From Candidatus Magasanikiibacteriota bacterium (GTDB taxonomy: Bacteria > Patescibacteriota > Patescibacteriia > Magasanikbacterales > UBA922): a stretch of DNA of 64,000 nt. The translations under genes were made by a program, and so were the position numbers. The stretch covers positions 9,699-73,698 of the forward strand of contig JBPOIO010000020.1 of assembly GCA_052034405.1 (NCBI GenBank), in the 5' to 3' direction. Shown here piece by piece: positions 2,728-36,616 of this stretch. The notes beneath the pieces were generated by a model. That model searched no databases, was not told where the DNA came from, and was given only the letters and a program-made list of their open reading frames with translations. The first letter of the stretch is position 1. Each line of letters starts with the position of its first letter.

Positions 2728-3792
2728 ATGAAAATACTTTTTTCTGGTGGAGGAACCTTGGGACCGGTGACGCCGCTTTTGGCATTGCATGAAAATATAA
2801 AAGATTTGCCAGGTCTTTCTTGTGTTTGGGTAGGAACAGAGTCTGGTCCCGAAGAAATATTGATAAAAAATGCAGGTATCCCATTTTTGAGTCTTCCTGC
2901 AAGTAAATTACGACGTTATTTTTCTTGGAAAACCTTGAGTGATGTCTTTGTTTTTGCTCAGGCATTGTTTCAATCTTTTGTTTTGCTTCGTCGTGAAAGA
3001 CCAAGTGTGTGTATTTCTGCTGGTGGTTATGTATCTGTACCCCTTCATATTGTGGCAAAAATTTTGGGTATAAAAACATGGATTCACCAACAAGATTTGG
3101 AACTTGGTCTTGCCAATCGTTTGATGGCTCCTACTGCAAATCTTATTACTGTTGCTGTACCACAAAGTTTACTTTTTTTCCCAAAAGAAAAAACTCGTAC
3201 GCTTGGTAATCCTGTACGACCGAGTATTTTGGAAGCAGAAAAAAAGAAGGCTTTTGAAAAATTTGGACTGGATGCGAATCTTCCTGTTATTTTTGCAACA
3301 GGTGGGGGAACAGGATCAGAAAAAATCAATGTTTTGGTCGCACAGCTCGCACTTGAACTTGGTGATAGTGTTCAAATTATCCATTTAACAGGAAAAGAAA
3401 GAAAGACATTGGAACCAGATCGTCCTTTGTTGCATTATCATACGTTTGAATTTTTGGGTGAACATATGGCCGATGCCTATGCGGCAAGTGATATTGTAAT
3501 TTGTCGTGGTGGGTTTGGAACGCTCTCAGAACTTGCGGCTTTGAAAAAAACTGCTATTGTTATTCCGAAATCTGGACACCAAGAAGAAAATGTCAAGTTC
3601 TGTGCGGACCTTGGGGGACTTCTTTCTTTAAATGAAAATACAACAACATCAATTGAACTGCAAAGTAAAGTAGAGGGATTGCTTGCGGATCCACAACTTC
3701 GACTTCATCTTGGAGAAACATTGGCCACTTGTATTCCAACAGCAACAAAAGAATCAATATTTGATTGTTTCAAGTCTTTGGGTGTGATATAA
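2728..3792 (+). CDS. murG: UDP-GlcNAc:lipid I N-acetylglucosaminyltransferase MurG
   Basis: N-terminus ILFSGGGTLGPVTPLLAL, and a GT-B fold C-terminal half with the TGGGTGSEKIN motif. Confidence 0.9.
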   Translation: MKILFSGGGTLGPVTPLLALHENIKDLPGLSCVWVGTESGPEEILIKNAGIPFLSLPASKLRRYFSWKTLSDVFVFAQALFQSFVLLRRERPSVCISAGGYVSVPLHIVAKILGIKTWIHQQDLELGLANRLMAPTANLITVAVPQSLLFFPKEKTRTLGNPVRPSILEAEKKKAFEKFGLDANLPVIFATGGGTGSEKINVLVAQLALELGDSVQIIHLTGKERKTLEPDRPLLHYHTFEFLGEHMADAYAASDIVICRGGFGTLSELAALKKTAIVIPKSGHQEENVKFCADLGGLLSLNENTTTSIELQSKVEGLLADPQLRLHLGETLATCIPTATKESIFDCFKSLGVI

Positions 3793-3821
3793 TATTGGTA
3801 TTCGGTTTTTTCTTTTTTTTT

Positions 3822-5477
3822 ATGCCAATACCTAGTCTTCGTCCTGACTACGAAAGCTTAGGGAAAGATACGATTTGTGTTTTTGCTCAAACAAACTTCC
3901 GCAATCAATTGCGGCGTTTTGGTATAAAATTAGACGACCGTCGTCGTCACATGTATATTGTTGGAAAAACAGGTATGGGAAAATCAACCATGATGGAAAA
4001 CATGGTTCTTGATGATATTTTTTCTGGCAATGGTATTGGGCTTGTGGATCCACATGGAGATTTCGCAGAAAAAATTCTCAACTATATCCCTGCCAAACGT
4101 ATTAATGATGTTGTGTATATCAACCCATCAGATCTTGATTTTCCAATTGGATTCAATATCTTGGAGGTACAAAACGAAGGACAAAAACATTTGATTGTGG
4201 CAGGTCTCATGGGAATTTTCAAAAAGATTTGGCCAGATGTGTGGAGTGCTCGTATGGAATATATCCTCAATAATACACTTCTTGCACTTATTGAATATCC
4301 AGGATCGACCTTGCTTGGTATCAATCGTTTGCTTTCTGATAAAAAATATCGCAAAAAAGTAGTAGCAAAAGTAAAAGATCCTGTTATCAAAAGTTTTTGG
4401 AATGTTGAGTTTGCAAGTTATACAGAAAAATATGCACAGGAGGCTGTGGCTCCAATTCAAAATAAAATTGGTCAATTTTTGTCTACCAATGTTATCCGAA
4501 ATATGGTTGCGCAGGTAAAATCAACGATTGATATTCGTAAACTCATGGATGAAAAAAAGATTGTCATCATGAATTTGAGTAAGGGGCGTATTGGAGAAGA
4601 TAATAGTCGTTTGCTCGGAGGAATGCTTATTACCAAAATTCAGCTTGCGGCTATGGAACGTGTAGATACTCCAGAGGCAGAACGTAAAGATTTCTTTTTG
4701 TACGTTGATGAATTTCAAAATTTTGCAACTCCATCTTTTGCCAATATTTTGTCAGAAGCCCGAAAGTATCGTTTGAGTTTGATTATGGCGCATCAATATA
4801 TCAAGCAGCTCGACGAGATTGTTGCTGATGCTGTTTTTGGAAATGTTGGTACTATTATTTCATTTCGTATTGGTGGGGGAGATGCCGAGATGCTTGCCAA
4901 AGAATTTACCCCAATATTTCTTGAAGAAGACTTGGTAAATTTGCCAAAATTTCAAATATTTTTGAAACTTATGATTGATGGTGTTTCTTCTACACCATTT
5001 AGTGCTATGACTTTGCCACCGCTTGGAAGTCCGACAGGAAGTCTTGAAAAAGTTATTCGAGTCTCTCGTGAACGTTATGGTCGACCTCGTGAGGCTATTG
5101 AAGATAAAATTATGCGTTGGGCAGGCCTTGAGGGTGATATGGTTGATGAAGACGAAGATGAAGAACCTGAACAAAGTTCTCTTGATTCTTTGGAGAGTTC
5201 TGTAGATTCGAAGCCTGCTGTGGTAGAAAAAATCGTAGAAGCGATTCCACCACAAGAAGTTTTTGTCGAAGAGCCTGTTCTTCATTTGGATTCTTTATTA
5301 CCAGCAGAAACTTCTTTGGATAAAAGTGAAGACCTTGTTCATTTTGATAGTCCTGTGCTTCCATCTTCATCTGCACCTTCTGTTGCAAAAGATTCTTCTT
5401 TGAGTGGAGAAAAAAAGAAACGAAGACGTCGACGTAGAAGAAAAAATTCAGGAGCTGTGAGTACAAGTTCTGTCTAA
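3822..5477 (+). CDS. P-loop ATPase of the TraD/VirD4/HerA (DUF87)-like type, with an acidic then polybasic C-terminal tail
   Basis: Walker A is IVGKTGMGKST and Walker B is FFLYVDEFQNF; a VDPHGDF motif is also present. The C-terminal ~120 aa are low-complexity D/E/S-rich and end in KKKRRRRRRRK. Confidence 0.55.
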   Translation: MPIPSLRPDYESLGKDTICVFAQTNFRNQLRRFGIKLDDRRRHMYIVGKTGMGKSTMMENMVLDDIFSGNGIGLVDPHGDFAEKILNYIPAKRINDVVYINPSDLDFPIGFNILEVQNEGQKHLIVAGLMGIFKKIWPDVWSARMEYILNNTLLALIEYPGSTLLGINRLLSDKKYRKKVVAKVKDPVIKSFWNVEFASYTEKYAQEAVAPIQNKIGQFLSTNVIRNMVAQVKSTIDIRKLMDEKKIVIMNLSKGRIGEDNSRLLGGMLITKIQLAAMERVDTPEAERKDFFLYVDEFQNFATPSFANILSEARKYRLSLIMAHQYIKQLDEIVADAVFGNVGTIISFRIGGGDAEMLAKEFTPIFLEEDLVNLPKFQIFLKLMIDGVSSTPFSAMTLPPLGSPTGSLEKVIRVSRERYGRPREAIEDKIMRWAGLEGDMVDEDEDEEPEQSSLDSLESSVDSKPAVVEKIVEAIPPQEVFVEEPVLHLDSLLPAETSLDKSEDLVHFDSPVLPSSSAPSVAKDSSLSGEKKKRRRRRRRKNSGAVSTSSV

Positions 5478-9004: not shown

Positions 9005-10077
9005 GCGTAAAGCAAAAGAAAAAAGTACTTATTTGTATGTCTGGCGGCGTCGATTCTTCGGTGGCTGCGCTTTTGCTCGTGCAAGCAGGCTACGAGGTGA
9101 CGGGGGCCTATATGAAGCAGTGGAGTGACTCCAAGGGGCTCTCTGGTGTGTGTAGTTGGAAAGACGATCGTCGCGACGCACTTCGCGTGGCAGCTCATCT
9201 GGCAATTCCACTTTTGACACTCGATTTTGAAAAAGAATATCGAAAATGGGTGGTGAAATACATGTTTGACGAATACCGTCGTGGACGAACTCCAAATCCA
9301 GATGTGATGTGCAACAAATATGTAAAATTTGGTTTTTGGATGGAAAAGGCGCGTGAGCTTGGATTTGATTATCTTGCGACTGGTCACTATGCACAAGTGC
9401 AAAAAGTTGGTCGAGTGGTCAAACTGCTCGAAGCAAAAGATACAGAAAAAGATCAAACATATTTTTTGCATCAACTCGGTCAAGAACAATTATCGCATAC
9501 ACTTTTTCCAATTGGCCATTTGAAAAAAACAGAGGTTCGTAGGCTGGCCAAGAAATATAAACTTCCGACTGCCGAGCGTGCTGAAAGTATGGGCATTTGT
9601 TTCATTGGCGAAGTACCAATGAAAGAGTTTTTACAGCAAAAGATTAAGCCCAAAAAAGGCAAAATTCGAAATACGAGTGGAGATGAAATAGGGGAGCACG
9701 AGGGCCTAGCTTTTTATACCATTGGTCAGCGTCATGGATTTTCGCAATCAGGTGGTACAGAGCCTTTGTTTGTGGTGGCAAAAAACATGAAGAAAAATGA
9801 GTTGATTGTCGGAAATGAAGATGATCCGGCGCTGTATAAAAAGGAAATTGTCCTAGAAAATATACATTTTGTGAGTGGACAGGCTCCAAAATTTCCGCTA
9901 CAATGCCAAGTACGAATGCGACATCGTCAAGCTTTTCAAAAGGTGATTGTTACAAAAGGAAAGAAGTCAAAAACTGTTATTCTTGCATTTCAAAAAGCAC
10001 AAAAAGCTCTTACCCCAGGACAATTTGCTGTTTTGTATAAAAATGCTGAGTGTTTGGGTGGTGGGGTGATTGAATAA
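9001..10077 (+). CDS. mnmA: tRNA-specific 2-thiouridylase MnmA
   Basis: PP-loop VLICMSGGVDSSVAALLL, catalytic Cys motifs, and a conserved C-terminal beta-barrel. Confidence 0.9.
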   Translation: MSVKQKKKVLICMSGGVDSSVAALLLVQAGYEVTGAYMKQWSDSKGLSGVCSWKDDRRDALRVAAHLAIPLLTLDFEKEYRKWVVKYMFDEYRRGRTPNPDVMCNKYVKFGFWMEKARELGFDYLATGHYAQVQKVGRVVKLLEAKDTEKDQTYFLHQLGQEQLSHTLFPIGHLKKTEVRRLAKKYKLPTAERAESMGICFIGEVPMKEFLQQKIKPKKGKIRNTSGDEIGEHEGLAFYTIGQRHGFSQSGGTEPLFVVAKNMKKNELIVGNEDDPALYKKEIVLENIHFVSGQAPKFPLQCQVRMRHRQAFQKVIVTKGKKSKTVILAFQKAQKALTPGQFAVLYKNAECLGGGVIE

Positions 10078-17346: not shown

Positions 17347-20295
17347 ATGGATACTGTAGAAATAGAAAAACTGCTCGAAGATAATGAGAGGTCTCTGATT
17401 GAGATCTATTTTGATTTGCAGGCGCAATTTGAAGAAAAATATGGGGCTAATACGGTGGTACTGATTGAAGTGGGATCGTTTTTTGAAGTCTATGGAGTAG
17501 AGAGTGATGAAATCAAAATTGGAAAACCAAAAGAAATTGCCGAAATTTTAAACCTTCAACTCACTCGGCGCAATAAACAATTTCCAGAAAATTCCTTGAA
17601 AAATCCATTGCTTGCTGGTTTTCCGGTAGCAACTTTTGATCGCTATATTGCGAGGCTTATTCAAGAACATAAATATACTATTGTTGTAGTGCGCCAGGCA
17701 GGGTTGCCTCCACATATTCGGCGTTATGTAGAACGTATTATTTCTCCTGGTGTGAACTTTGATTATTCATTGGGGCGTGATAATAATTTTATTGCATCTC
17801 TTTTGATCGATGAAATTCATGGGTTGTATTCTGTTGGTTACAGTGCACTTGATGTGACAACTGGAAAAACTTATGTTGAGGAAATTCAGAGTACCAAAGA
17901 AGATTCCAATTTTGCACTTGATGAAGTGTTTCGTTTGCTGCGCAGCTATCCTACAAGTGAAATTTTGTTGACTTTTTTGAGTACTGACATTGACCAGTAC
18001 AAAGTTCGGCAGTATTTGGAAATTTTGGAAAGTGATGTCAAAATAAATACAAAACGTTTGAAAATTTCCTATCAAAATGAACTTTTGAAACGGACCTATA
18101 ATGTTCAATCTTTTTTGTCAGCCATTGAATTTTTGGATTTGGAAAAAAAACCATTGGCATCTGAGTCGCTTGCTGTTTTGGTTGATTTTATTATTGATCA
18201 TGACAGTCAAATTATTCAAAAACTGGAAAAACCAATTATTTTATCAAATGAAAATTATTTGTATTTGGGAAATAATCCACTCGAGCAATTGAATATTATT
18301 GGGACGAATCTCAATGAATTGCATATTGCTTCGGTGATTGATTACACTCTGACGAGTATCGGTGCGCGCCTTCTTCGTGAACGTTTGTCAAATCCAATTA
18401 CAAATTCTACAGAAATTGAACAGCGTTATAATTTGTCAGAAATTTTGGGTGAAGTGCATTTGTCTCTTGATCAAGAACTTCGTCATGTCTATGATTTGGA
18501 GCGTATTATTCGTCGCATTCAACTTGCGCGTTTGCATCCATTTGAAATAAATTTTTTGTATGATTCACTCAAAAGTGCAGATTGTATTGTGCAGTCACTG
18601 CAGAATATAAAAAATCATAGAGTTTTGGAAGAATTTTTTCAAGAAAAAAACAGGCTTCAAGATTGTTTGCGTTCACTTGAAAAAATATTTGATTTTGAAC
18701 AAACGAGTCGAGTTGCACTGCAGGCTATTGATACGACTATTTTTCAAGTTGGATTTCATGCCGAGCTCGATAATTTGATGCGTAGACGTGCGGATCTTGA
18801 AGAAAAGCTCGAGATTATTCGTGGAAAAGTTTTGGAGGTTCTCGAAAGTGAAATAGGAAAAAAAGAAAGAGACTTTGTAGAAATTCGCCAACTGGATAAA
18901 GAAGGACATTATATTACTCTTACAAGAAGTCGTTTTGCCCTTATTGAAGAAAAACTTAAAACAACATTTGTGTCTCTTGATGGCACTGTCTATGCGTTTT
19001 CGGATTTTTCTTTTAAAACACAAACAACAAACGTAAAAATTACTGCTCCTATAATAGATCGTATTTCCGAGGAGATTGTTTTGCTACAAGGAAAAATTGC
19101 TGCGACAACTAGAGAATTGTATATTCAAGAATTGCATAAATTGGAAGAGAACTTTTTGAATTTGTTTATTGCAACTTCTTCTTTTTTGGCCAAAATTGAT
19201 GTGGCTCTGTCAAATATAAAAGCAAGTATCAAATTGAATTTGTGTCGGCCAGAAATTGTAGCATTTGACAGTGAGCCCTTTATGGAAATTTCCGACTTGC
19301 GGCATCTGCTCGTCGAGGCGCGTGAAGAAAATGGTATTTATGTACCAAACGATGTATTTTTGGGAAATAAAAAATATGCGCAAAAGGAATCCATTTTTAC
19401 ACAGATGATACAAGAAAATATTCGTGGTGTGCTCCTCTATGGAATCAATTCGAGTGGAAAATCTTCGTATATGAAGAGTATTGGTGTGGCGGTGATTTTG
19501 GCACAGAGTGGTTTTTTTGTACCAGCCGAGTCTATGCGTTTTTCAATATTTTCTGAAATTTTTACGCGTATTTTGGCGCGAGATAATTTTGAAAAAGGAT
19601 TATCCAGTTTTGCAGTAGAGATGTTGGAACTCAAAAATATTTTCAATCGTTGCAGCAAGAGAAGTTTGATCTTGGGAGATGAAATTAGTCATGGAACAGA
19701 AACACTTTCTGCCTTGGCTATTGTGAGCGCAACCATTGAACATTTGGCACTCAAAGATTGTTTTTTTCTTTTTACTACGCATTTGCACCAACTGTGCAAT
19801 TTGGAGAGAATTCAAAAGATAAAAGAAGTTCGAAGTGTGCATTTGCAAGTGTGCTATGATGCTCAAAAAGATAAACTTATTTTTGAACGTAAACTCCAAG
19901 CTGGAAGTGGAAGTAGTATTTACGGACTTGAATTTGCCGAGTCGCTTCATATTGATAAGGACTTTATGAAGCGTGCGCAAACTATACGAAAAGAGTTGGC
20001 CGAGGATTATCAGGAACTTGAACTCTTAACAAAAAAACAAAAAAGCAAGTATCACAAAGAATTGTATTTGTCTTCCTGCGCTATTTGTAAAAAAATGGTG
20101 GAAGATACGCATCATATTGCGCCCCAAGAGATTGCGGATAGTGATGGCAATATTGGGCACTTTCACAAAAATCACAAATATAATTTGCTGCCACTATGCA
20201 AAGACTGCCATAATCGGGTACACGAAGGGAAGCTGATCATTCGTGGATTTGTTATGACGAGTCATGGTCTTGAAATAGATTTTGACGAAAAATAA
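17347..20295 (+). CDS. MutS-family protein with a C-terminal HNH endonuclease domain (MutS7-like)
   Basis: Domain I-like N-terminus with GSFFEVY (the Phe-x-Glu mismatch motif). ABC ATPase domain V with Walker A INSSGKSSYMKS and Walker B LILGDEISHGTE. C-terminal HNH/zinc motif CAICKK...HHIAPQ...N..LLPLCKDCHNRVH. Confidence 0.8.
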   Translation: MDTVEIEKLLEDNERSLIEIYFDLQAQFEEKYGANTVVLIEVGSFFEVYGVESDEIKIGKPKEIAEILNLQLTRRNKQFPENSLKNPLLAGFPVATFDRYIARLIQEHKYTIVVVRQAGLPPHIRRYVERIISPGVNFDYSLGRDNNFIASLLIDEIHGLYSVGYSALDVTTGKTYVEEIQSTKEDSNFALDEVFRLLRSYPTSEILLTFLSTDIDQYKVRQYLEILESDVKINTKRLKISYQNELLKRTYNVQSFLSAIEFLDLEKKPLASESLAVLVDFIIDHDSQIIQKLEKPIILSNENYLYLGNNPLEQLNIIGTNLNELHIASVIDYTLTSIGARLLRERLSNPITNSTEIEQRYNLSEILGEVHLSLDQELRHVYDLERIIRRIQLARLHPFEINFLYDSLKSADCIVQSLQNIKNHRVLEEFFQEKNRLQDCLRSLEKIFDFEQTSRVALQAIDTTIFQVGFHAELDNLMRRRADLEEKLEIIRGKVLEVLESEIGKKERDFVEIRQLDKEGHYITLTRSRFALIEEKLKTTFVSLDGTVYAFSDFSFKTQTTNVKITAPIIDRISEEIVLLQGKIAATTRELYIQELHKLEENFLNLFIATSSFLAKIDVALSNIKASIKLNLCRPEIVAFDSEPFMEISDLRHLLVEAREENGIYVPNDVFLGNKKYAQKESIFTQMIQENIRGVLLYGINSSGKSSYMKSIGVAVILAQSGFFVPAESMRFSIFSEIFTRILARDNFEKGLSSFAVEMLELKNIFNRCSKRSLILGDEISHGTETLSALAIVSATIEHLALKDCFFLFTTHLHQLCNLERIQKIKEVRSVHLQVCYDAQKDKLIFERKLQAGSGSSIYGLEFAESLHIDKDFMKRAQTIRKELAEDYQELELLTKKQKSKYHKELYLSSCAICKKMVEDTHHIAPQEIADSDGNIGHFHKNHKYNLLPLCKDCHNRVHEGKLIIRGFVMTSHGLEIDFDEK

Positions 20296-20305
20296 GTTGA
20301 AAATA

Positions 20306-20340
20306 AAAAGAACTCTCAAAAATGAGAGTTCTTTTGTGTT
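20306..20340. terminator. Bidirectional rho-independent terminator
   Basis: AAGAACTCTCA-AAAA-TGAGAGTTCTT followed by T-rich sequence. Confidence 0.55.
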
Positions 20341-20344
20341 TAGA

Positions 20345-21080
20345 AACTAAGATCGGGGCGCTGCTTCGTGCGGAAGCCGGGAGGGGCCTGTGGCGGGTGC
20401 TGCTCAGGTGGGGTCGGGCAGGGGAGGCATGAGCATGGCAGGCGGCATCAGGACATTGCCGTCGGGCGCCCCGTAGGAGCGCACGCAGGTGTAGCCTTTG
20501 GCCACGCTGCTGTAGGCGCAGGCGACATAGGCGCCATCGGCTTGTGGGCCTTCGGCCTTAGCCTTCACGGCCTCGAGGGCCTCTTTCTGGGTCGCCCAGT
20601 AGGGCGTGACCTTTCCCGTTACCACGTAGGGGCTGCTGCTGGTTGTGGGCGGGCAGTAGGGCATGTCGCCGTCGAATGGACACATGGCCCGTGCCGTGTT
20701 TGGCCTCAGGCGCTGGCCTTGCTCGCTCAGGCAGCGGACGTATCCGCCAGGTACCGAGCAATGGTACTTTCCAGCTTCCACCTCGACGCGGCCCAAAAAC
20801 AACTTGTCCGGTCCGAAAATGTCACAGGTTTGGGCGTCCTGCGGGGCCTCGAAGCCTGGCCCTTTGAGCTCGCAATCTCCCTTGCCCAGGGGTTGAGCCA
20901 AGGGGATGAACCACTTGGCCTCCTCCGCGCTGGGCATCGTGCTGCCGCAGGCTGACAGGATCAGGGCGGCGAGGAAGACGAGGACGATGGCGATCATGCG
21001 CAGCATGAGATGACTCCTAATCAGCTGAAATTGCGGCATTTGGGCTGCCGCCTGGCCCGGTGCACGAAGCACCGCGATCT
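20345..21080. other. Compositional island of ~65-68% GC in a ~34% GC background, bounded by imperfect inverted repeats
   Basis: Abrupt GC shift at both borders. Left end is GATCGGGGCGCTGCTTCGTGCGGAAGCCGGG. The reverse complement of the right end is GATCGCGGTGCTTCGTGCACCGGGCCAGG, sharing GATCG and a CGNTGCTTCGTGC core. Confidence 0.6.
20404..21006 (-). CDS. Cys-rich secreted lipoprotein encoded in the GC-rich island
   Basis: Signal peptide plus lipobox MLRMIAIVLVFLAALILSAC-GS. AGGAG Shine-Dalgarno 7 nt upstream. Nine cysteines. GC3-rich codon usage unlike neighbouring genes. The ORF-track version is extended N-terminally to 21090. Confidence 0.55.
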   Translation of the reverse strand: MLRMIAIVLVFLAALILSACGSTMPSAEEAKWFIPLAQPLGKGDCELKGPGFEAPQDAQTCDIFGPDKLFLGRVEVEAGKYHCSVPGGYVRCLSEQGQRLRPNTARAMCPFDGDMPYCPPTTSSSPYVVTGKVTPYWATQKEALEAVKAKAEGPQADGAYVACAYSSVAKGYTCVRSYGAPDGNVLMPPAMLMPPLPDPT

Positions 21081-21177
21081 TAATTTCCAATTGGTCAATT
21101 GTAATGTACGGATAGCTGATTATATCAAAAAACTTCTCTTTGTCAAGAGAAGTTTTGTTAAATTTGGCTCTACTGAC

Positions 21178-23127
21178 TTATCTTTTATATTCAAAAATCC
21201 AGATATTATCATCAATAATCTGCATGCGATCGGCTGTTTTGCTCGCTCCGGCAATAATTTTTTCTGCATTGGCCCAATATTTATTGACCACAAAATATGC
21301 TTTGTTGACATTGACAATATTCATTGCTTCTATCATATACTCACGTTTTTGGCCCTCATAAATCATTTTTCCGTAGTATTTGTACATCTCGCCGCCAGTT
21401 GGAATGGAATAATAAAATAGTTGGCCCAAAGGGGTGTCAAAATATTTTGCAAAACTATATTCGGTGAGAGCAGAAGCTGATACGAGTTGGTCAGAAAGTA
21501 CAATATAGTTATACTCTGAATTTTGATTGTGAATCCATTGTACCGCATTGAAATCACTCTTCGTGACATTGTATCCAGGAAAACGTGCTTTGATATTACG
21601 CTGCGGGTAAGAGAGATAAAGGGCCAGTGTGAGTGAGAGAGGAATGAGACAAAAGACAAAAATATTTTTTAACTGTTTTTTGTTTTTGATCATTTCATAG
21701 AGAAAAGCAAATCCATACATGGCAAAGGGCAAAAGAAAAATGATACTGCTACGAATAAGACGCAGTGGATAATCTCCTTGTTCGTAGGCAACCACATCTG
21801 GGAAAATAATCCAACTGCGCAGGAGCCAGGCATCGATAAAAAGTGCAAGTGCGCTGAGTGGAAAAATCCAGACAAGGAGTGATTTTTCTTTTTTTCGATA
21901 TTGTACAAAACCAAAAAGCGCGAGCAAAAGTACGATTGGAATAATAATTTTTTCAAAGAAATAGAGAATTTCAAAACGCAGTGGGCTACTTTTGGCATAC
22001 CAATATGGATCTTTGAAGAGGTCCAAAAATGAAGAGATATGAGTGAATGGATTGCCAAATGTTGGGATTTTTCCTCCTATACGAAGACCATTGAGAGTAA
22101 ACATGGCAGGGAGCAAGAGACAAAGACCAACAAATGTGAGAGCAAGAATGGAGAGGACAAATGTTTTCTTTGTTTGAAATTTTTGTATGAGAAACACGCT
22201 GAGGGTGAAGATAAAAATTGGGGCTCCAATAAGTGGGTGGGTAAAGAGCGCAGCGAGGGAGATCAAAAAAGAAGGGAGCAGTGATTTGGGATTTTGAATC
22301 TGTGAAAAATTCAAAAATATGAGAACAATTGTAAAGAACAAAACAAGGTTGTGCGGTGTCGTGAGTGAGAGAAGTAAAAATGGGACAAAAGCCAAAATCC
22401 AAAAAGAAATGTAGCGGAGAAATTCGGAGTTTATTGTTTTTTCGAGACTTTTGAGAATGGTCTTGGGTAAAAAGATTGCTGCAAGAGCCGGAACAAGCCA
22501 GACATCGATAAAAAATATTTTGATCTGTGTAATATTGGAGAGGAGTACTACGAGTGAATACTGTCCAATATAGTAAGGTTGTTTTGGGGAAATAAATCCA
22601 TGTGCTTGGATCCAATTTTCGGTAACGCGGTGTATAAAGGCGTCAAAGCCATACCCAAGAGGGTAGATAATGGCGGCAACCGAGAGTCCTACAAAGAAGT
22701 GGAGTGATGTAAGAAAGATATTTTGGGTCGATGAGTTATTTTTTTTGTAGTTCAAAAAGAGCAGAGCTGTCGCTAGGGTATAGACAAGAAAAAAAGAGGG
22801 GTCAATTTCGGTCCATGGTGAGGCTGCCAGGTCAAAGGTTCTGTGAAAAAAGAGCTGGCTTAGAAGAAAAATATCGAGTAGAACTATGGCAATACTTGTG
22901 GGTTGAATTTTTTCTTTTGGAATCTTCCATTTTGGCTTGAAAAGTATAAGTGGAATGGCGATGAGAAAAAATAGAATAAAGGATACAAGGGGAGTGATTT
23001 TGTAGCTATAATAGACGAAACTTGCCAAAATAATGAGAAGAGATAAGAACCCCAAAGAATCAAGGGAGCAAGAACTTCTGTCTATAGAGCGAATTTTGAG
23101 CCAAAACTTCTTCATAACTATTGTCAA
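21178..23127 (-). CDS. Large polytopic membrane protein with a C-terminal extracytoplasmic domain (possible glycosyltransferase or polymerase)
   Basis: About 12 predicted TM helices followed by a ~170-aa soluble C-terminus. No confident family assignment. Confidence 0.45.
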   Translation of the reverse strand: MTIVMKKFWLKIRSIDRSSCSLDSLGFLSLLIILASFVYYSYKITPLVSFILFFLIAIPLILFKPKWKIPKEKIQPTSIAIVLLDIFLLSQLFFHRTFDLAASPWTEIDPSFFLVYTLATALLFLNYKKNNSSTQNIFLTSLHFFVGLSVAAIIYPLGYGFDAFIHRVTENWIQAHGFISPKQPYYIGQYSLVVLLSNITQIKIFFIDVWLVPALAAIFLPKTILKSLEKTINSEFLRYISFWILAFVPFLLLSLTTPHNLVLFFTIVLIFLNFSQIQNPKSLLPSFLISLAALFTHPLIGAPIFIFTLSVFLIQKFQTKKTFVLSILALTFVGLCLLLPAMFTLNGLRIGGKIPTFGNPFTHISSFLDLFKDPYWYAKSSPLRFEILYFFEKIIIPIVLLLALFGFVQYRKKEKSLLVWIFPLSALALFIDAWLLRSWIIFPDVVAYEQGDYPLRLIRSSIIFLLPFAMYGFAFLYEMIKNKKQLKNIFVFCLIPLSLTLALYLSYPQRNIKARFPGYNVTKSDFNAVQWIHNQNSEYNYIVLSDQLVSASALTEYSFAKYFDTPLGQLFYYSIPTGGEMYKYYGKMIYEGQKREYMIEAMNIVNVNKAYFVVNKYWANAEKIIAGASKTADRMQIIDDNIWIFEYKR

Positions 23128-29173: not shown

Positions 29174-29203
29174 TTGACAAAAACAGCTATTTTATGCTAT
29201 ATT
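29174..29203 (+). promoter_or_regulatory. Sigma70-like promoter TTGACA-18-TATATT
   Basis: AT-rich native-looking promoter immediately 5' of the GC-rich leader of the 29290 gene. Confidence 0.45.
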
Positions 29204-29289
29204 TACTTACTTTGCCTCATCCGAGGCCGAGGAGGTTTGCCCCCACCGAGTGGAAGAGGGGTTTACAAAGACAGGAAGGAGCTTCCATA

Positions 29290-29907
29290 ATGGAGCCCAA
29301 GCCCCAGAGCTGGCAGGAGTGGCTGGTGTTCCGCCAAGCTGCTTCGATGATGACTGTGGCTCGCATCCCGCTCACGGAGGTCCGTGGGTGGGGGATGCAG
29401 CAGGCGGGTGACTTCGCTCGTCCCGATGGGAAATTTTGGGCTCTCAAGGGAGTCCAGGTTTCTCTCGCGGGGCGAGAGGTATCGACCTGGGACCAGCCCC
29501 TCATCGAGGAGTATGGTCAGGGGGTCGTGGTGCTGGTCATTGACCCGACGCAGGATCGCTTCCTGCTTCGGGCAAAGGCCGAGCCCGGCAACGCGGCACT
29601 GGGTTGTGTGGCGCTTGCGCCCACGATTCAGTGCAGTCAGTCGAACCTCACCCAGGTCCACGGCGGCAAGCGGCCGCCGCGGGTCGAGCTCCTCGATGGG
29701 AAGGAGATCGACTGGATCCGCATCCTCCAGGATGGGGGGAAGTTCTACTGCAAGTTGAACATCTATCACATCCTCTACCTTTCCCACGAAGAGGTGGGCG
29801 TGCTCAGCGTGGATGAACGTTGGTTCACGCGCCGGGAGATCCAAGAGGCCTTTCTCGCGGGGGTGGTGAACAGCCACCTCGCCGAGGTCCTTGGCCTGCT
29901 CATCTGA
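29290..29907 (+). CDS. NDP-hexose 2,3-dehydratase-like single-domain protein (GC-rich foreign gene)
   Basis: GC ~62%. AGGAAGGAG Shine-Dalgarno. Motifs REVSTWDQPL, KAEPGN, PTIQCSQSN..HGG resemble the EvaA/TylX3 2,3-dehydratase fold, which acts on dTDP-4-keto-6-deoxyglucose. The ORF-track start at 29155 is upstream and unlikely. Confidence 0.45.
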   Translation: MEPKPQSWQEWLVFRQAASMMTVARIPLTEVRGWGMQQAGDFARPDGKFWALKGVQVSLAGREVSTWDQPLIEEYGQGVVVLVIDPTQDRFLLRAKAEPGNAALGCVALAPTIQCSQSNLTQVHGGKRPPRVELLDGKEIDWIRILQDGGKFYCKLNIYHILYLSHEEVGVLSVDERWFTRREIQEAFLAGVVNSHLAEVLGLLI

Positions 29908-30119
29908 GCAGCCTAGGACGGCTCTCGAAATAGCGCAGTTCTATGCGTGCCCCTGACAATTTTGTCGGGGAAGAGGGCTTCAAGATAGCCCTAGAGAGGC
30001 CCGGAGTGATCCTTGGGAGGGAATCACAAGAATTCGGGCATGCAAAAAGCAGCTTTGTACAAAGGCTGTTTTTTTATTGCTTTTTTTTTGCTTTTTCGCT
30101 ATGATAGCTTCATATTTCT

Positions 30120-35116: not shown

Positions 35117-36616
35117 ATGGAGGGGAGACTACAAAAAATAATACACTCAAAAAGCAAAACGTTTCTCGCGTTTTGTTTTTGTTTTCTTTTGGGAATTGCC
35201 TCGCTCTCTTTTGTGAATCAAAAATTTTTTGAGAGAGAAATTTTTGCGCTGTTTCTTATTGCTTTATTTGCACTGGTAATTTTGTGGAAAAAACAACCCT
35301 TTCAATTTTTTATTTTAGCAGCAATATTTTTTCTTTTTGGAATGATGCGAGTCAATTGGGCTATTCCGGAGCATGATGCAAACTCGCTTTCTTTTTATAA
35401 TGATAAAAAACAAAGCATCAGTGGATTTATTGCGGGGGAGCCAGATATTCGTCAAGATGCCGTGCATTATATTGTAGAAGCAAAAAATATTCGTACAGGA
35501 GGGAGTTGGCAAGAGGTCAGTGGAAAAATTGCAGTCAAAATGCCGCTCTATCCTCGCTACAACTACGGACAAAACATTACCCTCGATTGCAACTTGAAAA
35601 CGCCCACTCCCATTGAAGATTTTCACTACGAAAAATACCTTGCGACTTATGGGGTATGGAGTGTTTGTGAGGCCCCGCATATTCAGCTGGAATCAGGCAC
35701 AAGTGGAAACCCAATTCTTCATGCACTTTTTGCATTCAAGTCAAAATGTGCAGAACATATCTCGCGGCTTTGGCACGAACCCTATGCGAGTTTTGTGGCA
35801 GGTGTACTCTATGGGTATCGCGGGGGACTTGGAACACTGAGTACCGATTTCAATCGTACGGGGGTCACGCATATTGTGGCAGTTTCAGGATTCAATATTA
35901 CAATTATTGCCTCAGTATTTGCGGCAACACTTTTGTATCTTCTCGTTCCTCGCAAAAAAGCCTTTTGGATTGTCAGTTTTGCAATACTTCTTTTTGTGCT
36001 TTTTACAGGGGCCAGTGGTTCTGCTGTGCGCGCGGCTGTGATGGCACTACTTGTCCTGATTTCGCGTCAACTGGGGCGAACTTCGCGTATGGATAATGTA
36101 CTCATATTCACCGTCGCACTCATGTCTTTTGCAAATCCATTTACACTGATTTGGGATGTTGGATTTCAACTTTCATTTCTTTCGACTTGCGGACTCGTGT
36201 ATCTTTCACCACATTTACAAAAATATTTTTCACGCGTTCCTACATTTTTGAACCTTCAGGAGTCGCTTAGCGCAACCCTTGCTGCTATGATTTTCACTCT
36301 TCCACTTATTTTATTTGAATTTGGTCGACTTTCTGTCGTAGCAGTTCTGGTAAATATTCTTGTTGTGCCTGTAGTATCTTTTATTATGGCATTTGGTTTT
36401 GCAACACTTTTTTCTTCATTTATTTTTTGGCCACTCGCAAAGATTCTTGCATTTATTAGCTATATACTTCTTGCCTACGTTGTAGTGGTGGTACGTTTTT
36501 TTAGTCAACTGCCTTGGGCTGCGCTGAGTCTGCCACTTCCTTGGTGGGGGATGCTTGGACTCTATGCCCTGTTGATATATTTTTTAAATTTGAGAAAAAC
36601 TTTAAAAAAAGTTTAG
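35117..36616 (+). CDS. comEC: ComEC/Rec2 DNA-uptake channel: DUF4131 plus competence domain
   Basis: TGVTHIVAVSGFNITIIASVF...GASGSAVRAAVMALLVLISRQLGR competence-domain signature. Polytopic. Confidence 0.75.
   Translation: MEGRLQKIIHSKSKTFLAFCFCFLLGIASLSFVNQKFFEREIFALFLIALFALVILWKKQPFQFFILAAIFFLFGMMRVNWAIPEHDANSLSFYNDKKQSISGFIAGEPDIRQDAVHYIVEAKNIRTGGSWQEVSGKIAVKMPLYPRYNYGQNITLDCNLKTPTPIEDFHYEKYLATYGVWSVCEAPHIQLESGTSGNPILHALFAFKSKCAEHISRLWHEPYASFVAGVLYGYRGGLGTLSTDFNRTGVTHIVAVSGFNITIIASVFAATLLYLLVPRKKAFWIVSFAILLFVLFTGASGSAVRAAVMALLVLISRQLGRTSRMDNVLIFTVALMSFANPFTLIWDVGFQLSFLSTCGLVYLSPHLQKYFSRVPTFLNLQESLSATLAAMIFTLPLILFEFGRLSVVAVLVNILVVPVVSFIMAFGFATLFSSFIFWPLAKILAFISYILLAYVVVVVRFFSQLPWAALSLPLPWWGMLGLYALLIYFLNLRKTLKKV

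Follow-up and report, generated by a model that had tools for sequence, protein, structure and literature searches.

INTRODUCTION

A long duplex that encloses a whole RNA is a classical substrate of ribonuclease III (RNase III), as in rRNA precursors and in the mRNAs of phages T7 and lambda. To our knowledge, a helix between the ends of a transcript is familiar from rRNA and from a few phage and toxin mRNAs, but not from accessory-gene cassettes. Here, we analyse a stretch of 64,000 nucleotides (nt) from a Candidatus Magasanikiibacteriota bacterium, a member of the Candidate Phyla Radiation (CPR), hereafter called the window, in which a GC-rich lipoprotein gene lies between mutS and a gene for a membrane protein. 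The unit is conserved among relatives, its coding sequence is constrained, its cargo varies, one of its relatives is a mosaic, and two inverted repeat arms covary and are located inside the predicted transcript. We regard it as rather probable that this locus is an old, horizontally acquired, hypervariable cassette for surface proteins, seated in a conserved expression socket whose transcript is closed by an RNA helix. Bacteria of the CPR are tiny, uncultured and thought to be attached to other cells, so that surface proteins are central to their biology.

Several described systems resemble this locus in part. With horizontally acquired islets and hypervariable surface loci, such as those for O-antigen and capsule, it shares a foreign composition, a patchy distribution and a varied cargo between conserved flanks, as well as a recombination tract that crosses a flank and products that belong to the cell envelope. 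Unlike O-antigen and capsule loci, the cassette is one small gene rather than a cluster, has a high GC content within a low-GC host, and is surrounded by a frame that brings its own promoter, leader, helix and terminator. The helix, with 25-28 base pairs (bp) formed across several hundred nt and with compensatory changes, resembles the processing stems of rRNA and of phage or bacterial mRNAs, but encloses the mRNA of an accessory lipoprotein gene, and a role in cleavage may be proposed by analogy. No RNase III gene was found among the scanned open reading frames (ORFs) of the 64-kb window.

Like mobile insertion cassettes and miniature inverted-repeat transposable elements (MITEs), the locus has an inverted repeat of typical length around a passenger gene, with no transposase inside. 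Unlike MITEs, it has no target-site duplication, occupies one site, and has arms that lie inside a predicted transcription unit and covary at a fixed position; no cognate insertion sequence or transposase was seen in the 64-kb window. The type I toxin mRNAs of the hok and AapA1 kind share with it a predicted pairing of the mRNA ends and an alternative local 5' hairpin, but the cargo in the window is no small toxin, its Shine-Dalgarno box is not sequestered, and there is no evident antitoxin RNA. Integron cassettes, finally, also carry promoterless ORFs of varied content behind a fixed outside promoter and have an imperfect palindromic boundary sequence, whereas our locus forms no array and has arms that flank the ORF and differ between cargo types. 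An integrase domain was found neither in the window nor in the gene lists of the related contigs L004, L006, L007, L009 and L011, and the island borders contain no GTTRRRY core of an attC site; the palindrome halves flank the ORF and do not stand together at its 3' end. In the 64-kb window and the relatives compared, the locus lacks defining features of a MITE or mobile insertion cassette, an integron cassette and an invertible switch.

RESULTS

A GC-rich lipoprotein gene between two genes of native composition

The island and the genes around it are as follows, in coordinates of the window.

17347-20295, plus strand: mutS with a C-terminal HNH-like domain, flanking gene of native composition (ORF, Pfam, GC content by codon position)
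20351-21079, no strand: GC-rich segment, 65% GC (sliding composition)
20404-21006, minus strand: lipoprotein gene, 200 amino acids (aa) and stop (ORF; signal peptide, lipobox Cys20 and family comparison)
21014-21018, minus strand: Shine-Dalgarno box AGGAG, 8 nt upstream of the lipoprotein ATG (read directly)
21178-23127, minus strand: 649-aa polytopic membrane protein without Pfam match, flanking gene (ORF and homologue search)

Over the 729 nt from GATC to GATC (20351-21079), the GC content is 65%, compared to a mean of 0.377 for the whole window. Windows of 200 nt gave 0.62-0.68 inside the island and 0.31-0.40 in both flanks, and the composition borders are sharp within a few bases and not graded. 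The GC-rich island with a sharp jump beside mutS, first noticed in a reading of the sequence alone (the sequence-only reading), is therefore real and amounts to about 28 points, although the 34% GC given there for the genome was slightly low. In the lipoprotein gene, the GC content at codon positions 1, 2 and 3 is 0.62, 0.52 and 0.81, versus 0.44-0.49, 0.30-0.32 and 0.29-0.38 in the two neighbouring genes, so that the foreign composition that had been claimed is found at all three positions.

The minus-strand ORF begins at an ATG (MLRMIAIVLVFLAALILSAC...) and was correctly described before as an intact gene for a Cys-rich lipoprotein, with a signal peptide, a lipobox Cys, an AGGAG box and nine Cys in 200 aa. 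The lipobox is LILSAC (LSAC), and signal peptide and lipobox together read MLRMIAIVLVFLAALILS-AC-GS, of which the A-C is kept in close homologues. In most of the distant family members, a Cys closes the N-terminal hydrophobic stretch; P0132 and P0135 are without such a Cys. The protein comprises two domains: the N-terminal one spans ~75 aa and holds six Cys, and the C-terminal one (~80 aa) is missing in some relatives; L004 and L031 have lost it through a clean deletion between CPP and DPT. A Pfam search with the lipoprotein returned no family match, and an exact-sequence look-up of its 200-aa and 222-aa forms matched no encoding contig. Four database entries hold close homologues (67-79% identity), and an exhaustive profile search with the N-terminal six-Cys domain recovered only 17 relatives, one of them from another Magasanikbacteria genome; nearly all are small (115-176 aa), and the majority have a lipobox-like Cys. 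The gene of one distant family member has a native composition (34% GC, on a contig of 30% GC), and therefore the protein does not need GC-rich coding. Between relatives, the ratio of nonsynonymous to synonymous substitution rates (dN/dS) of the lipoprotein gene is 0.25-0.45, and the gene is under purifying selection. The product is presumably a disulfide-stabilised lipoprotein exposed on the cell surface.

The same slot carries different GC-rich cargo in relatives

Relatives were collected as the contigs of lipoprotein homologues and the contigs reached via the 649-aa membrane protein, homologues of which are confined to Magasanikbacteria and other Patescibacteria and by their names assign the organism to Candidatus Magasanikbacteria. 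This yielded ten distinct occupied loci, from separate samples and assemblies in Logan, ENA, JGI and NCBI; contigs with an occupied slot are L001-3, L004, L006, L007/8, L009/10, L011, L013, L014 and L031. In all ten, a GC-rich segment lies directly downstream of the membrane-protein gene in a low-GC background (37-42%), and mutS is the next gene in every occupied locus whose contig reaches it (all but L014). The third-position GC content (GC3) of the cargo is 0.71-0.88, versus 0.29-0.42 in the flanks, in every lineage measured. A same-locus homologue of native composition and without repeats, which the sequence-only reading had named as speaking against it, was not among them: all same-locus homologues are GC-rich and have the repeats.

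The junction sequences recur in diverged form across these relatives. Synonymous divergence (dS) of the flanking genes is 1.2-3.5 between lineages and thus saturated, and the proteins encoded by the lipoprotein cargo are down to 38-79% identity. The island had been taken for a very recent acquisition; ten diverged loci with the same slot contradict this, and either the acquisition is older than the divergence of the lineages, or the unit was later transferred between them. They likewise contradict an assembly chimera, which had been left open and in which a high-GC contaminant fragment would have been joined to a low-GC contig. The abrupt change in composition at both borders, each with GATC, is what such a join would produce, but the junctions and the architecture recur, diverged, in independent assemblies from at least eight samples or sources, and the substitution pattern is that of coding sequence. 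For practical purposes the comparative data refute a chimera, the probability of which we consider negligible.

Not every relative carries the island. L005, L015 and L033, relatives at about the same distance as L011, lack the cargo together with the promoter, the leader and the arms, and have small hairpin repeats instead. Since relatives without the island exist, it is accessory DNA, and the claim that it was gained horizontally is upheld insofar as transfer is the simplest route to this distribution. A more distant relative, L012 (31% GC), has a different synteny and no islands. Where the slot is occupied, the cargo is not always the lipoprotein: L009/L010 have an unrelated Cys-rich ORF, and L011 and L014 have a 71-aa hydrophobic ORF that is likewise GC-rich.

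L001 is a mosaic. Its positions 1-1050 are 92-100% identical to the window, and after an intervening tract the remainder is again similar to the window and L031. This tract of ~550 bp (L001 1078-1600) is 89-99% L007-like and was imported, a clean case of homologous recombination between diverged Patescibacteria. The end of the membrane-protein gene, the promoter and leader, the 5' arm and the signal peptide all fall within it. Compared with L001, the window is ~96% identical in the upstream flank and ~80% in the island. L004 and L013 have the closest flanks (dN 0.14), yet carry different lipoprotein types (dN 0.53). Judged from these alignments, the slot behaves as a hypervariable locus that would be exchanged by homologous recombination.

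In several relatives, related hairpin repeats of ~100-130 nt (ATGAAAAAGAGAGGGGAAC...GTGTTCCCCTCTTTTTTCAT) are located between the cassette, or the empty slot, and mutS. They are absent from the window's own slot, have the look of MITE-type or REP-type (repetitive extragenic palindromic) sequences, and were found at these positions:

L011 8690-8840: hairpin repeats
L013 6760-6870: hairpin repeats
L015 4440-4720: hairpin repeats
L033 5210-5390: hairpin repeats

The arms lie between a predicted promoter and terminator and covary

The sequences that frame the cargo in the window are listed in the order of the predicted transcript.

21129-21156, minus strand: terminator hairpin of the upstream 649-aa membrane-protein gene, 12-bp stem (hairpin prediction and inverted repeat)
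21119-21146, minus strand: sigma-70-type promoter TTGACA-16 nt-(TG)TATAAT in AT-rich sequence, 12/12 match, extended -10 box
21091-21112, minus strand: AT-rich 5' leader with a CCGTAC(A/C)TTA(C/A)AA motif, present in all ten occupied slots
21062-21090, minus strand: 5' arm of the closing helix, UUGGAAAUUAAGAUCG CGG UGCUUCGUGC (repeat search, duplex, alignment and folding)
20340-20371, minus strand: 3' arm of the closing helix, GCACGAAGCA GCGCCC CGAUCUUAGUUUCUAA (repeat search, duplex, alignment and folding)
20306-20335, no strand: bidirectional intrinsic terminator with a 13-bp stem, common to the cassette and the convergent mutS (inverted repeat and prediction)

The predicted cassette promoter (21146-21119) is the best match in 16 kb and is kept in L001, L004, L007, L009, L011, L013 and L031. 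The upstream gene is followed by a terminator hairpin (CTCTTGACAAAGAG) whose loop contains the -35 hexamer of this promoter, in the relatives as well. Relatives with an empty slot have TTGCCA in the loop of this hairpin and no -10 box after it. Transcription would start at about 21112, which places the leader motif ~2-15 nt downstream of the start and before the 5' arm; L013 has an additional GC-rich hairpin of 45 nt between the leader motif and the 5' arm. The terminator shared with mutS is identical in the window, L001, L004 and L031. Both arms are thus located just inside the predicted transcript, downstream of the promoter and upstream of the terminator.

A repeat search paired 20358-20371 with 21062-21075 (14 nt, 93%) and 20340-20362 with 21068-21090 (23 nt, 83%), which together make an interrupted helix of 28 pairs with one bulge. 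The inverted repeats reported at the island borders are therefore real and non-random, but they are not confined to the GATCG that had been highlighted: they run 11 nt beyond it into the AT-rich flank. The exact core TGCTTCGTGC occurs at just two places in the 64-kb window, which are the two island borders. The duplex energy of the transcript ends is -63 kcal/mol, versus -34 +/- 4.5 in shuffled sequences (0 of 300 as good), and among 69 ORFs of the window the lipoprotein gene has the strongest pairing between its 5' and 3' flanks. The helix is present in both the minimum free energy and the centroid fold of the predicted 815-nt transcript, with pair probabilities of ~1.0, and a helix of 25-28 bp was found in all ten loci, with arms 345-800 nt apart.

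The arms fall into four types:

Window-type: 5' GATCG...TGCTTCG; 3' complementary
L006: 5' GAGATGGATGGTG; 3' CACCACCCATCTGAG
L011: 5' GAGATGGTTGGTGCA; 3' TGCACCAATCCTCCATCTC
L009: 5' AAATGGATGGAC; 3' GTCCATCCCTCCATTT

When the 16 outer pairs were aligned by hand, 98.6% of the cells were paired and 5 of the 16 pairs carried changes on both sides. None of 500 shuffles was as good, and slid registers gave 30-61% pairing. All wobble cells in the outer pairs are G.U on the sense strand, with zero A.C, and the sense-strand arms form a more stable duplex than their antisense counterparts in nine of the ten loci. GATC itself is not conserved: three other arm types have GATGG or AATGG, where compensatory change has turned its inner C-G pair into G-C. 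Therefore, the GATCG borders are not the integration scar that had been considered, nor a ligation scar. Ligation of a restriction fragment into a BglII-like palindrome (TAAGATCTTA) was also considered and rejected, since GATC is unconserved and the 'palindrome' is the helix. Most likely, the inverted repeats pair as RNA rather than act as DNA, and in the folding models this pairing would close the whole transcript.

These data bear on the possibility, raised in the sequence-only reading, that the repeats are the ends of a miniature mobile element, which would here be a mobile insertion cassette or MITE with a passenger gene and a transposase acting in trans. A real, if imperfect, inverted repeat of 25-28 bp that bounds a gene of foreign composition, the presence/absence polymorphism among relatives and the differing cargo between similar arms would all be expected of such an element. 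Yet there are no direct repeats beside the arms, and the sequences outside them differ: ...GACCAA precedes and ACACAA follows the arms in the window, versus ...ATTCA and ATCGAA in L011. All ten loci use a single site, and the proposed check for further arm copies revealed none in the 64-kb window (33 loose matches versus 40 expected), nor was there a Pfam match to a transposase or integrase among the ~60 window ORFs scanned. Empty slots are also without the promoter and the leader, and therefore the missing piece is not the repeat-bounded unit. Moreover, the arms lie exactly between promoter and terminator, they are imperfect, with wobble-type mismatches confined to one strand, and they drift by compensatory change at a fixed site, as in a vertically kept structure and not as after repeated insertion. 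A mobile element is therefore improbable.

An invertible DNA segment, in which a recombinase would invert the cargo with respect to a promoter that stays in place outside it and thereby switch the lipoprotein on and off, is highly improbable. The repeats do flank the gene with the promoter outside them, the cargo is a presumed surface protein, and covariation of the arms would also be expected if recombination homogenised them, but the cargo has one orientation in all ten independent loci, no invertase or recombinase gene was found in the 64-kb window, and the arms are ~83-93% complementary with bulges, unlike the identical cores of known switches.

In folding models, the proposed closing helix does not mask the ribosome-binding site

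The 5' arm overlaps a local hairpin at 21059-21073 (GGUGC-UUCGU-GCACC). In each of the four arm types, such a local hairpin, with covarying equivalents, is an alternative fold open to the 5' half of the inner helix, which suggests ordered co-transcriptional folding. This feature brings to mind an interaction of the hok/sok or AapA1 type, a sub-case of the RNA reading in which the mRNA would be translationally inert until its 3' end is trimmed: there is a closing helix between the extreme mRNA ends, the alternative 5' hairpin is reminiscent of the metastable hairpins of such mRNAs, and one of the cargos is a 71-aa hydrophobic peptide. However, the cargo of the window is a 200-aa lipoprotein under ordinary purifying selection, and no antisense RNA gene is evident and no Rfam match was obtained. 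In folding calculations, the unpaired probability of the Shine-Dalgarno box is 0.20 with and 0.19 without the 3' arm, and therefore a translational lock of the hok type is unsupported; we consider it very unlikely. For the same reason, we rejected the idea that the helix masks the ribosome-binding site.

An Rfam search with permissive thresholds found no family, solely sub-threshold matches on the terminator. That a closing helix might be a general trait of GC-rich islets was rejected as well, since a second island in the window and three islets of relatives gave z scores of ~0; the end-to-end helix is specific to the cassette slot. By analogy with known processing stems, its role is probably that of a processing or stability determinant, as an RNase III-type substrate or as a shield of both ends against exonucleases.

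Origin of the GC-rich cargo

At silent third positions of the cargo, pooled over five lineages, we counted 30 changes from GC to AT versus 10 from AT to GC, and in the neighbouring gene 40 versus 54. The cargo is slowly losing GC at silent sites, indicating that amelioration is under way, as expected of foreign DNA. The proposal that its GC level is at equilibrium, based on balanced all-site counts in the window, L031 and L007, was withdrawn because synonymous third positions change ~3:1 towards AT.

An alternative is that the gene is a long-time resident and not foreign, its GC content being upheld by selection that favours, for instance, a highly stable mRNA, or by a GC bias of repair in a hot spot of recombination. 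GC3 is high in all lineages despite saturated flanks, polarised changes at all sites are near balance in the window, L031 and L007, recombination is directly documented for the locus, and homologue searches found no donor. Set against this are the silent third-position flux of ~3:1 towards AT, composition borders that are sharp and not graded, the distant family member whose gene has native composition (34% GC, on a contig of 30% GC), relatives with empty slots, and several unrelated GC-rich single-gene islets scattered in these genomes. On balance, a resident gene is an improbable explanation of the island.

Further GC-rich islets (0.57-0.74 GC) were detected on the contigs of relatives:

L004 49-1976: GC-rich islet
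L009 1-502 and 11730-12282: GC-rich islets
L011 1-438 and 2516-2916: GC-rich islets
L014 1-210: GC-rich islet

They have sharp borders; where fully read, each contains one or two ORFs with promoter-like and terminator-like sequences of its own. Among the products are an L009 ORF after rpsI that resembles a peptidoglycan-binding domain and a small CxxC protein in L011; the two ORFs of the L004 islet had no Pfam match. Such islets seem to be a genome-wide habit of the clade, which points to repeated uptake from a high-GC source. A literature search found nothing specific on GC-rich islets in Patescibacteria or Magasanikbacteria.

Other features of the window

The island at 20351-21079 is not the sole GC-rich island of the window. 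A second one at ~29210-30040 reaches 0.69 GC (region 29174-30074), has no closing helix (z = 0.4) and lies inside a native deoxysugar/glycosyltransferase cluster, the 4,6-dehydratase of which would supply its substrate. It consists of the following parts:

29174-29203: promoter, 11/12 match to the consensus
29290-29907: 205-aa ORF, Pfam NDP-hexose 2,3-dehydratase (E 1e-33), preceded by a Shine-Dalgarno box
30044-30074: terminator

A short GC spike at 9020-9238, which reaches 0.60 over 150 nt, coincides with the start of a gene for an MnmA-like tRNA-specific 2-thiouridylase and is probably the region of a conserved nucleotide-binding motif. The mutS product (17347-20295) has MutS domains I, II, III and V and a C-terminal HNH-like region (weak Pfam matches to HNH_2 and DUF968; CxxC...H motifs), and this fusion is kept at 981-984 aa in all relatives; we presume that it is akin to the MutS-HNH fusions of some marine bacteria, giant viruses and octocoral mitochondria. 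The window also encodes a TrwB/VirD4-like coupling-protein ATPase and a ComEC competence channel (3765-5477 and 35117-36616), functions in DNA uptake and transfer that could be relevant to the entry of foreign DNA.

DISCUSSION

In the reading that we favour, a sub-clade of Candidatus Magasanikbacteria would hold an accessory gene in a conserved 'expression socket' between the membrane-protein gene and mutS. The socket would be composed of a consensus promoter, a short conserved leader, a transcript-end helix of 25-28 bp and a terminator in common with mutS, and between the helix arms it would accommodate a lineage-specific GC-rich cargo, here a disulfide-rich lipoprotein. The cargo would have been gained long ago from a high-GC source, with its GC content slowly dropping at silent sites, and would have been swapped among Magasanikbacteria lineages by homologous recombination via the conserved flanks. 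The repeats would act in RNA by closing the whole mRNA into one large stem-loop, and the closing duplex might lead to RNase III-type processing or protect both ends from exonucleases.

Several points weigh against this reading. Transcription of the cassette is proposed from a predicted promoter, start and terminator. The arms comprise only about four independent types and were chosen and aligned by hand, which makes the covariation statistic weaker, and DNA inverted repeats that are bound by one protein, or are homogenised by recombination, would covary too. The argument from G.U over A.C wobbles relies on three positions, and in L009 the antisense duplex is the more stable one. The predicted accessibility of the Shine-Dalgarno box is unaffected by the helix, so that any regulatory logic is hypothetical. 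As for the origin of the cargo, homologue and profile searches found no high-GC donor and no GC-rich homologue outside the slot, and the case for horizontal transfer is made up of composition and patchy distribution, which would be compatible with it. Finally, a GC3 of 0.8 next to saturated flanks is too high for a gene that was passed on strictly vertically and ameliorated neutrally, and therefore either cassette exchange or some selection for GC is needed; exchange between lineages can explain the persisting high GC3, with selection for GC as a possible alternative.

A more far-reaching interpretation is that the locus represents a new gene-cassette system in CPR bacteria, with a fixed socket that takes up, in exchange for one another, unrelated GC-rich genes that encode small proteins of the envelope. 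The arms may then belong to the exchange or maturation of the cassette, for example by delimiting a unit that would be excised, processed or even circularised as RNA, or as a recombination site, and the GC-richness of the cargo would reflect a common cassette pool or a requirement of the mechanism, and not a chance donor. We consider such a system unlikely.

For annotation, the lesson is that a jump in composition together with inverted repeats is by itself no proof of a recent insertion or of a mobile element. Two properties of the cassette and its genomic setting are notable: a covariation-supported helix of 25-28 bp that pairs both ends of a protein-coding mRNA, and sharp single-gene islets of 60-70% GC that persist in genomes of 37-42% GC where silent sites are saturated. 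If the helix is a processing signal, it would offer a new way to approach RNA maturation in CPR bacteria, and a common source of the GC-rich islets, if there is one, could hint at the host or partner of the organisms that carry them. As an old, hypervariable surface-protein cassette beside a housekeeping operon, the locus would be a compact way for one CPR lineage to keep and shuffle foreign surface-protein genes in a conserved frame.

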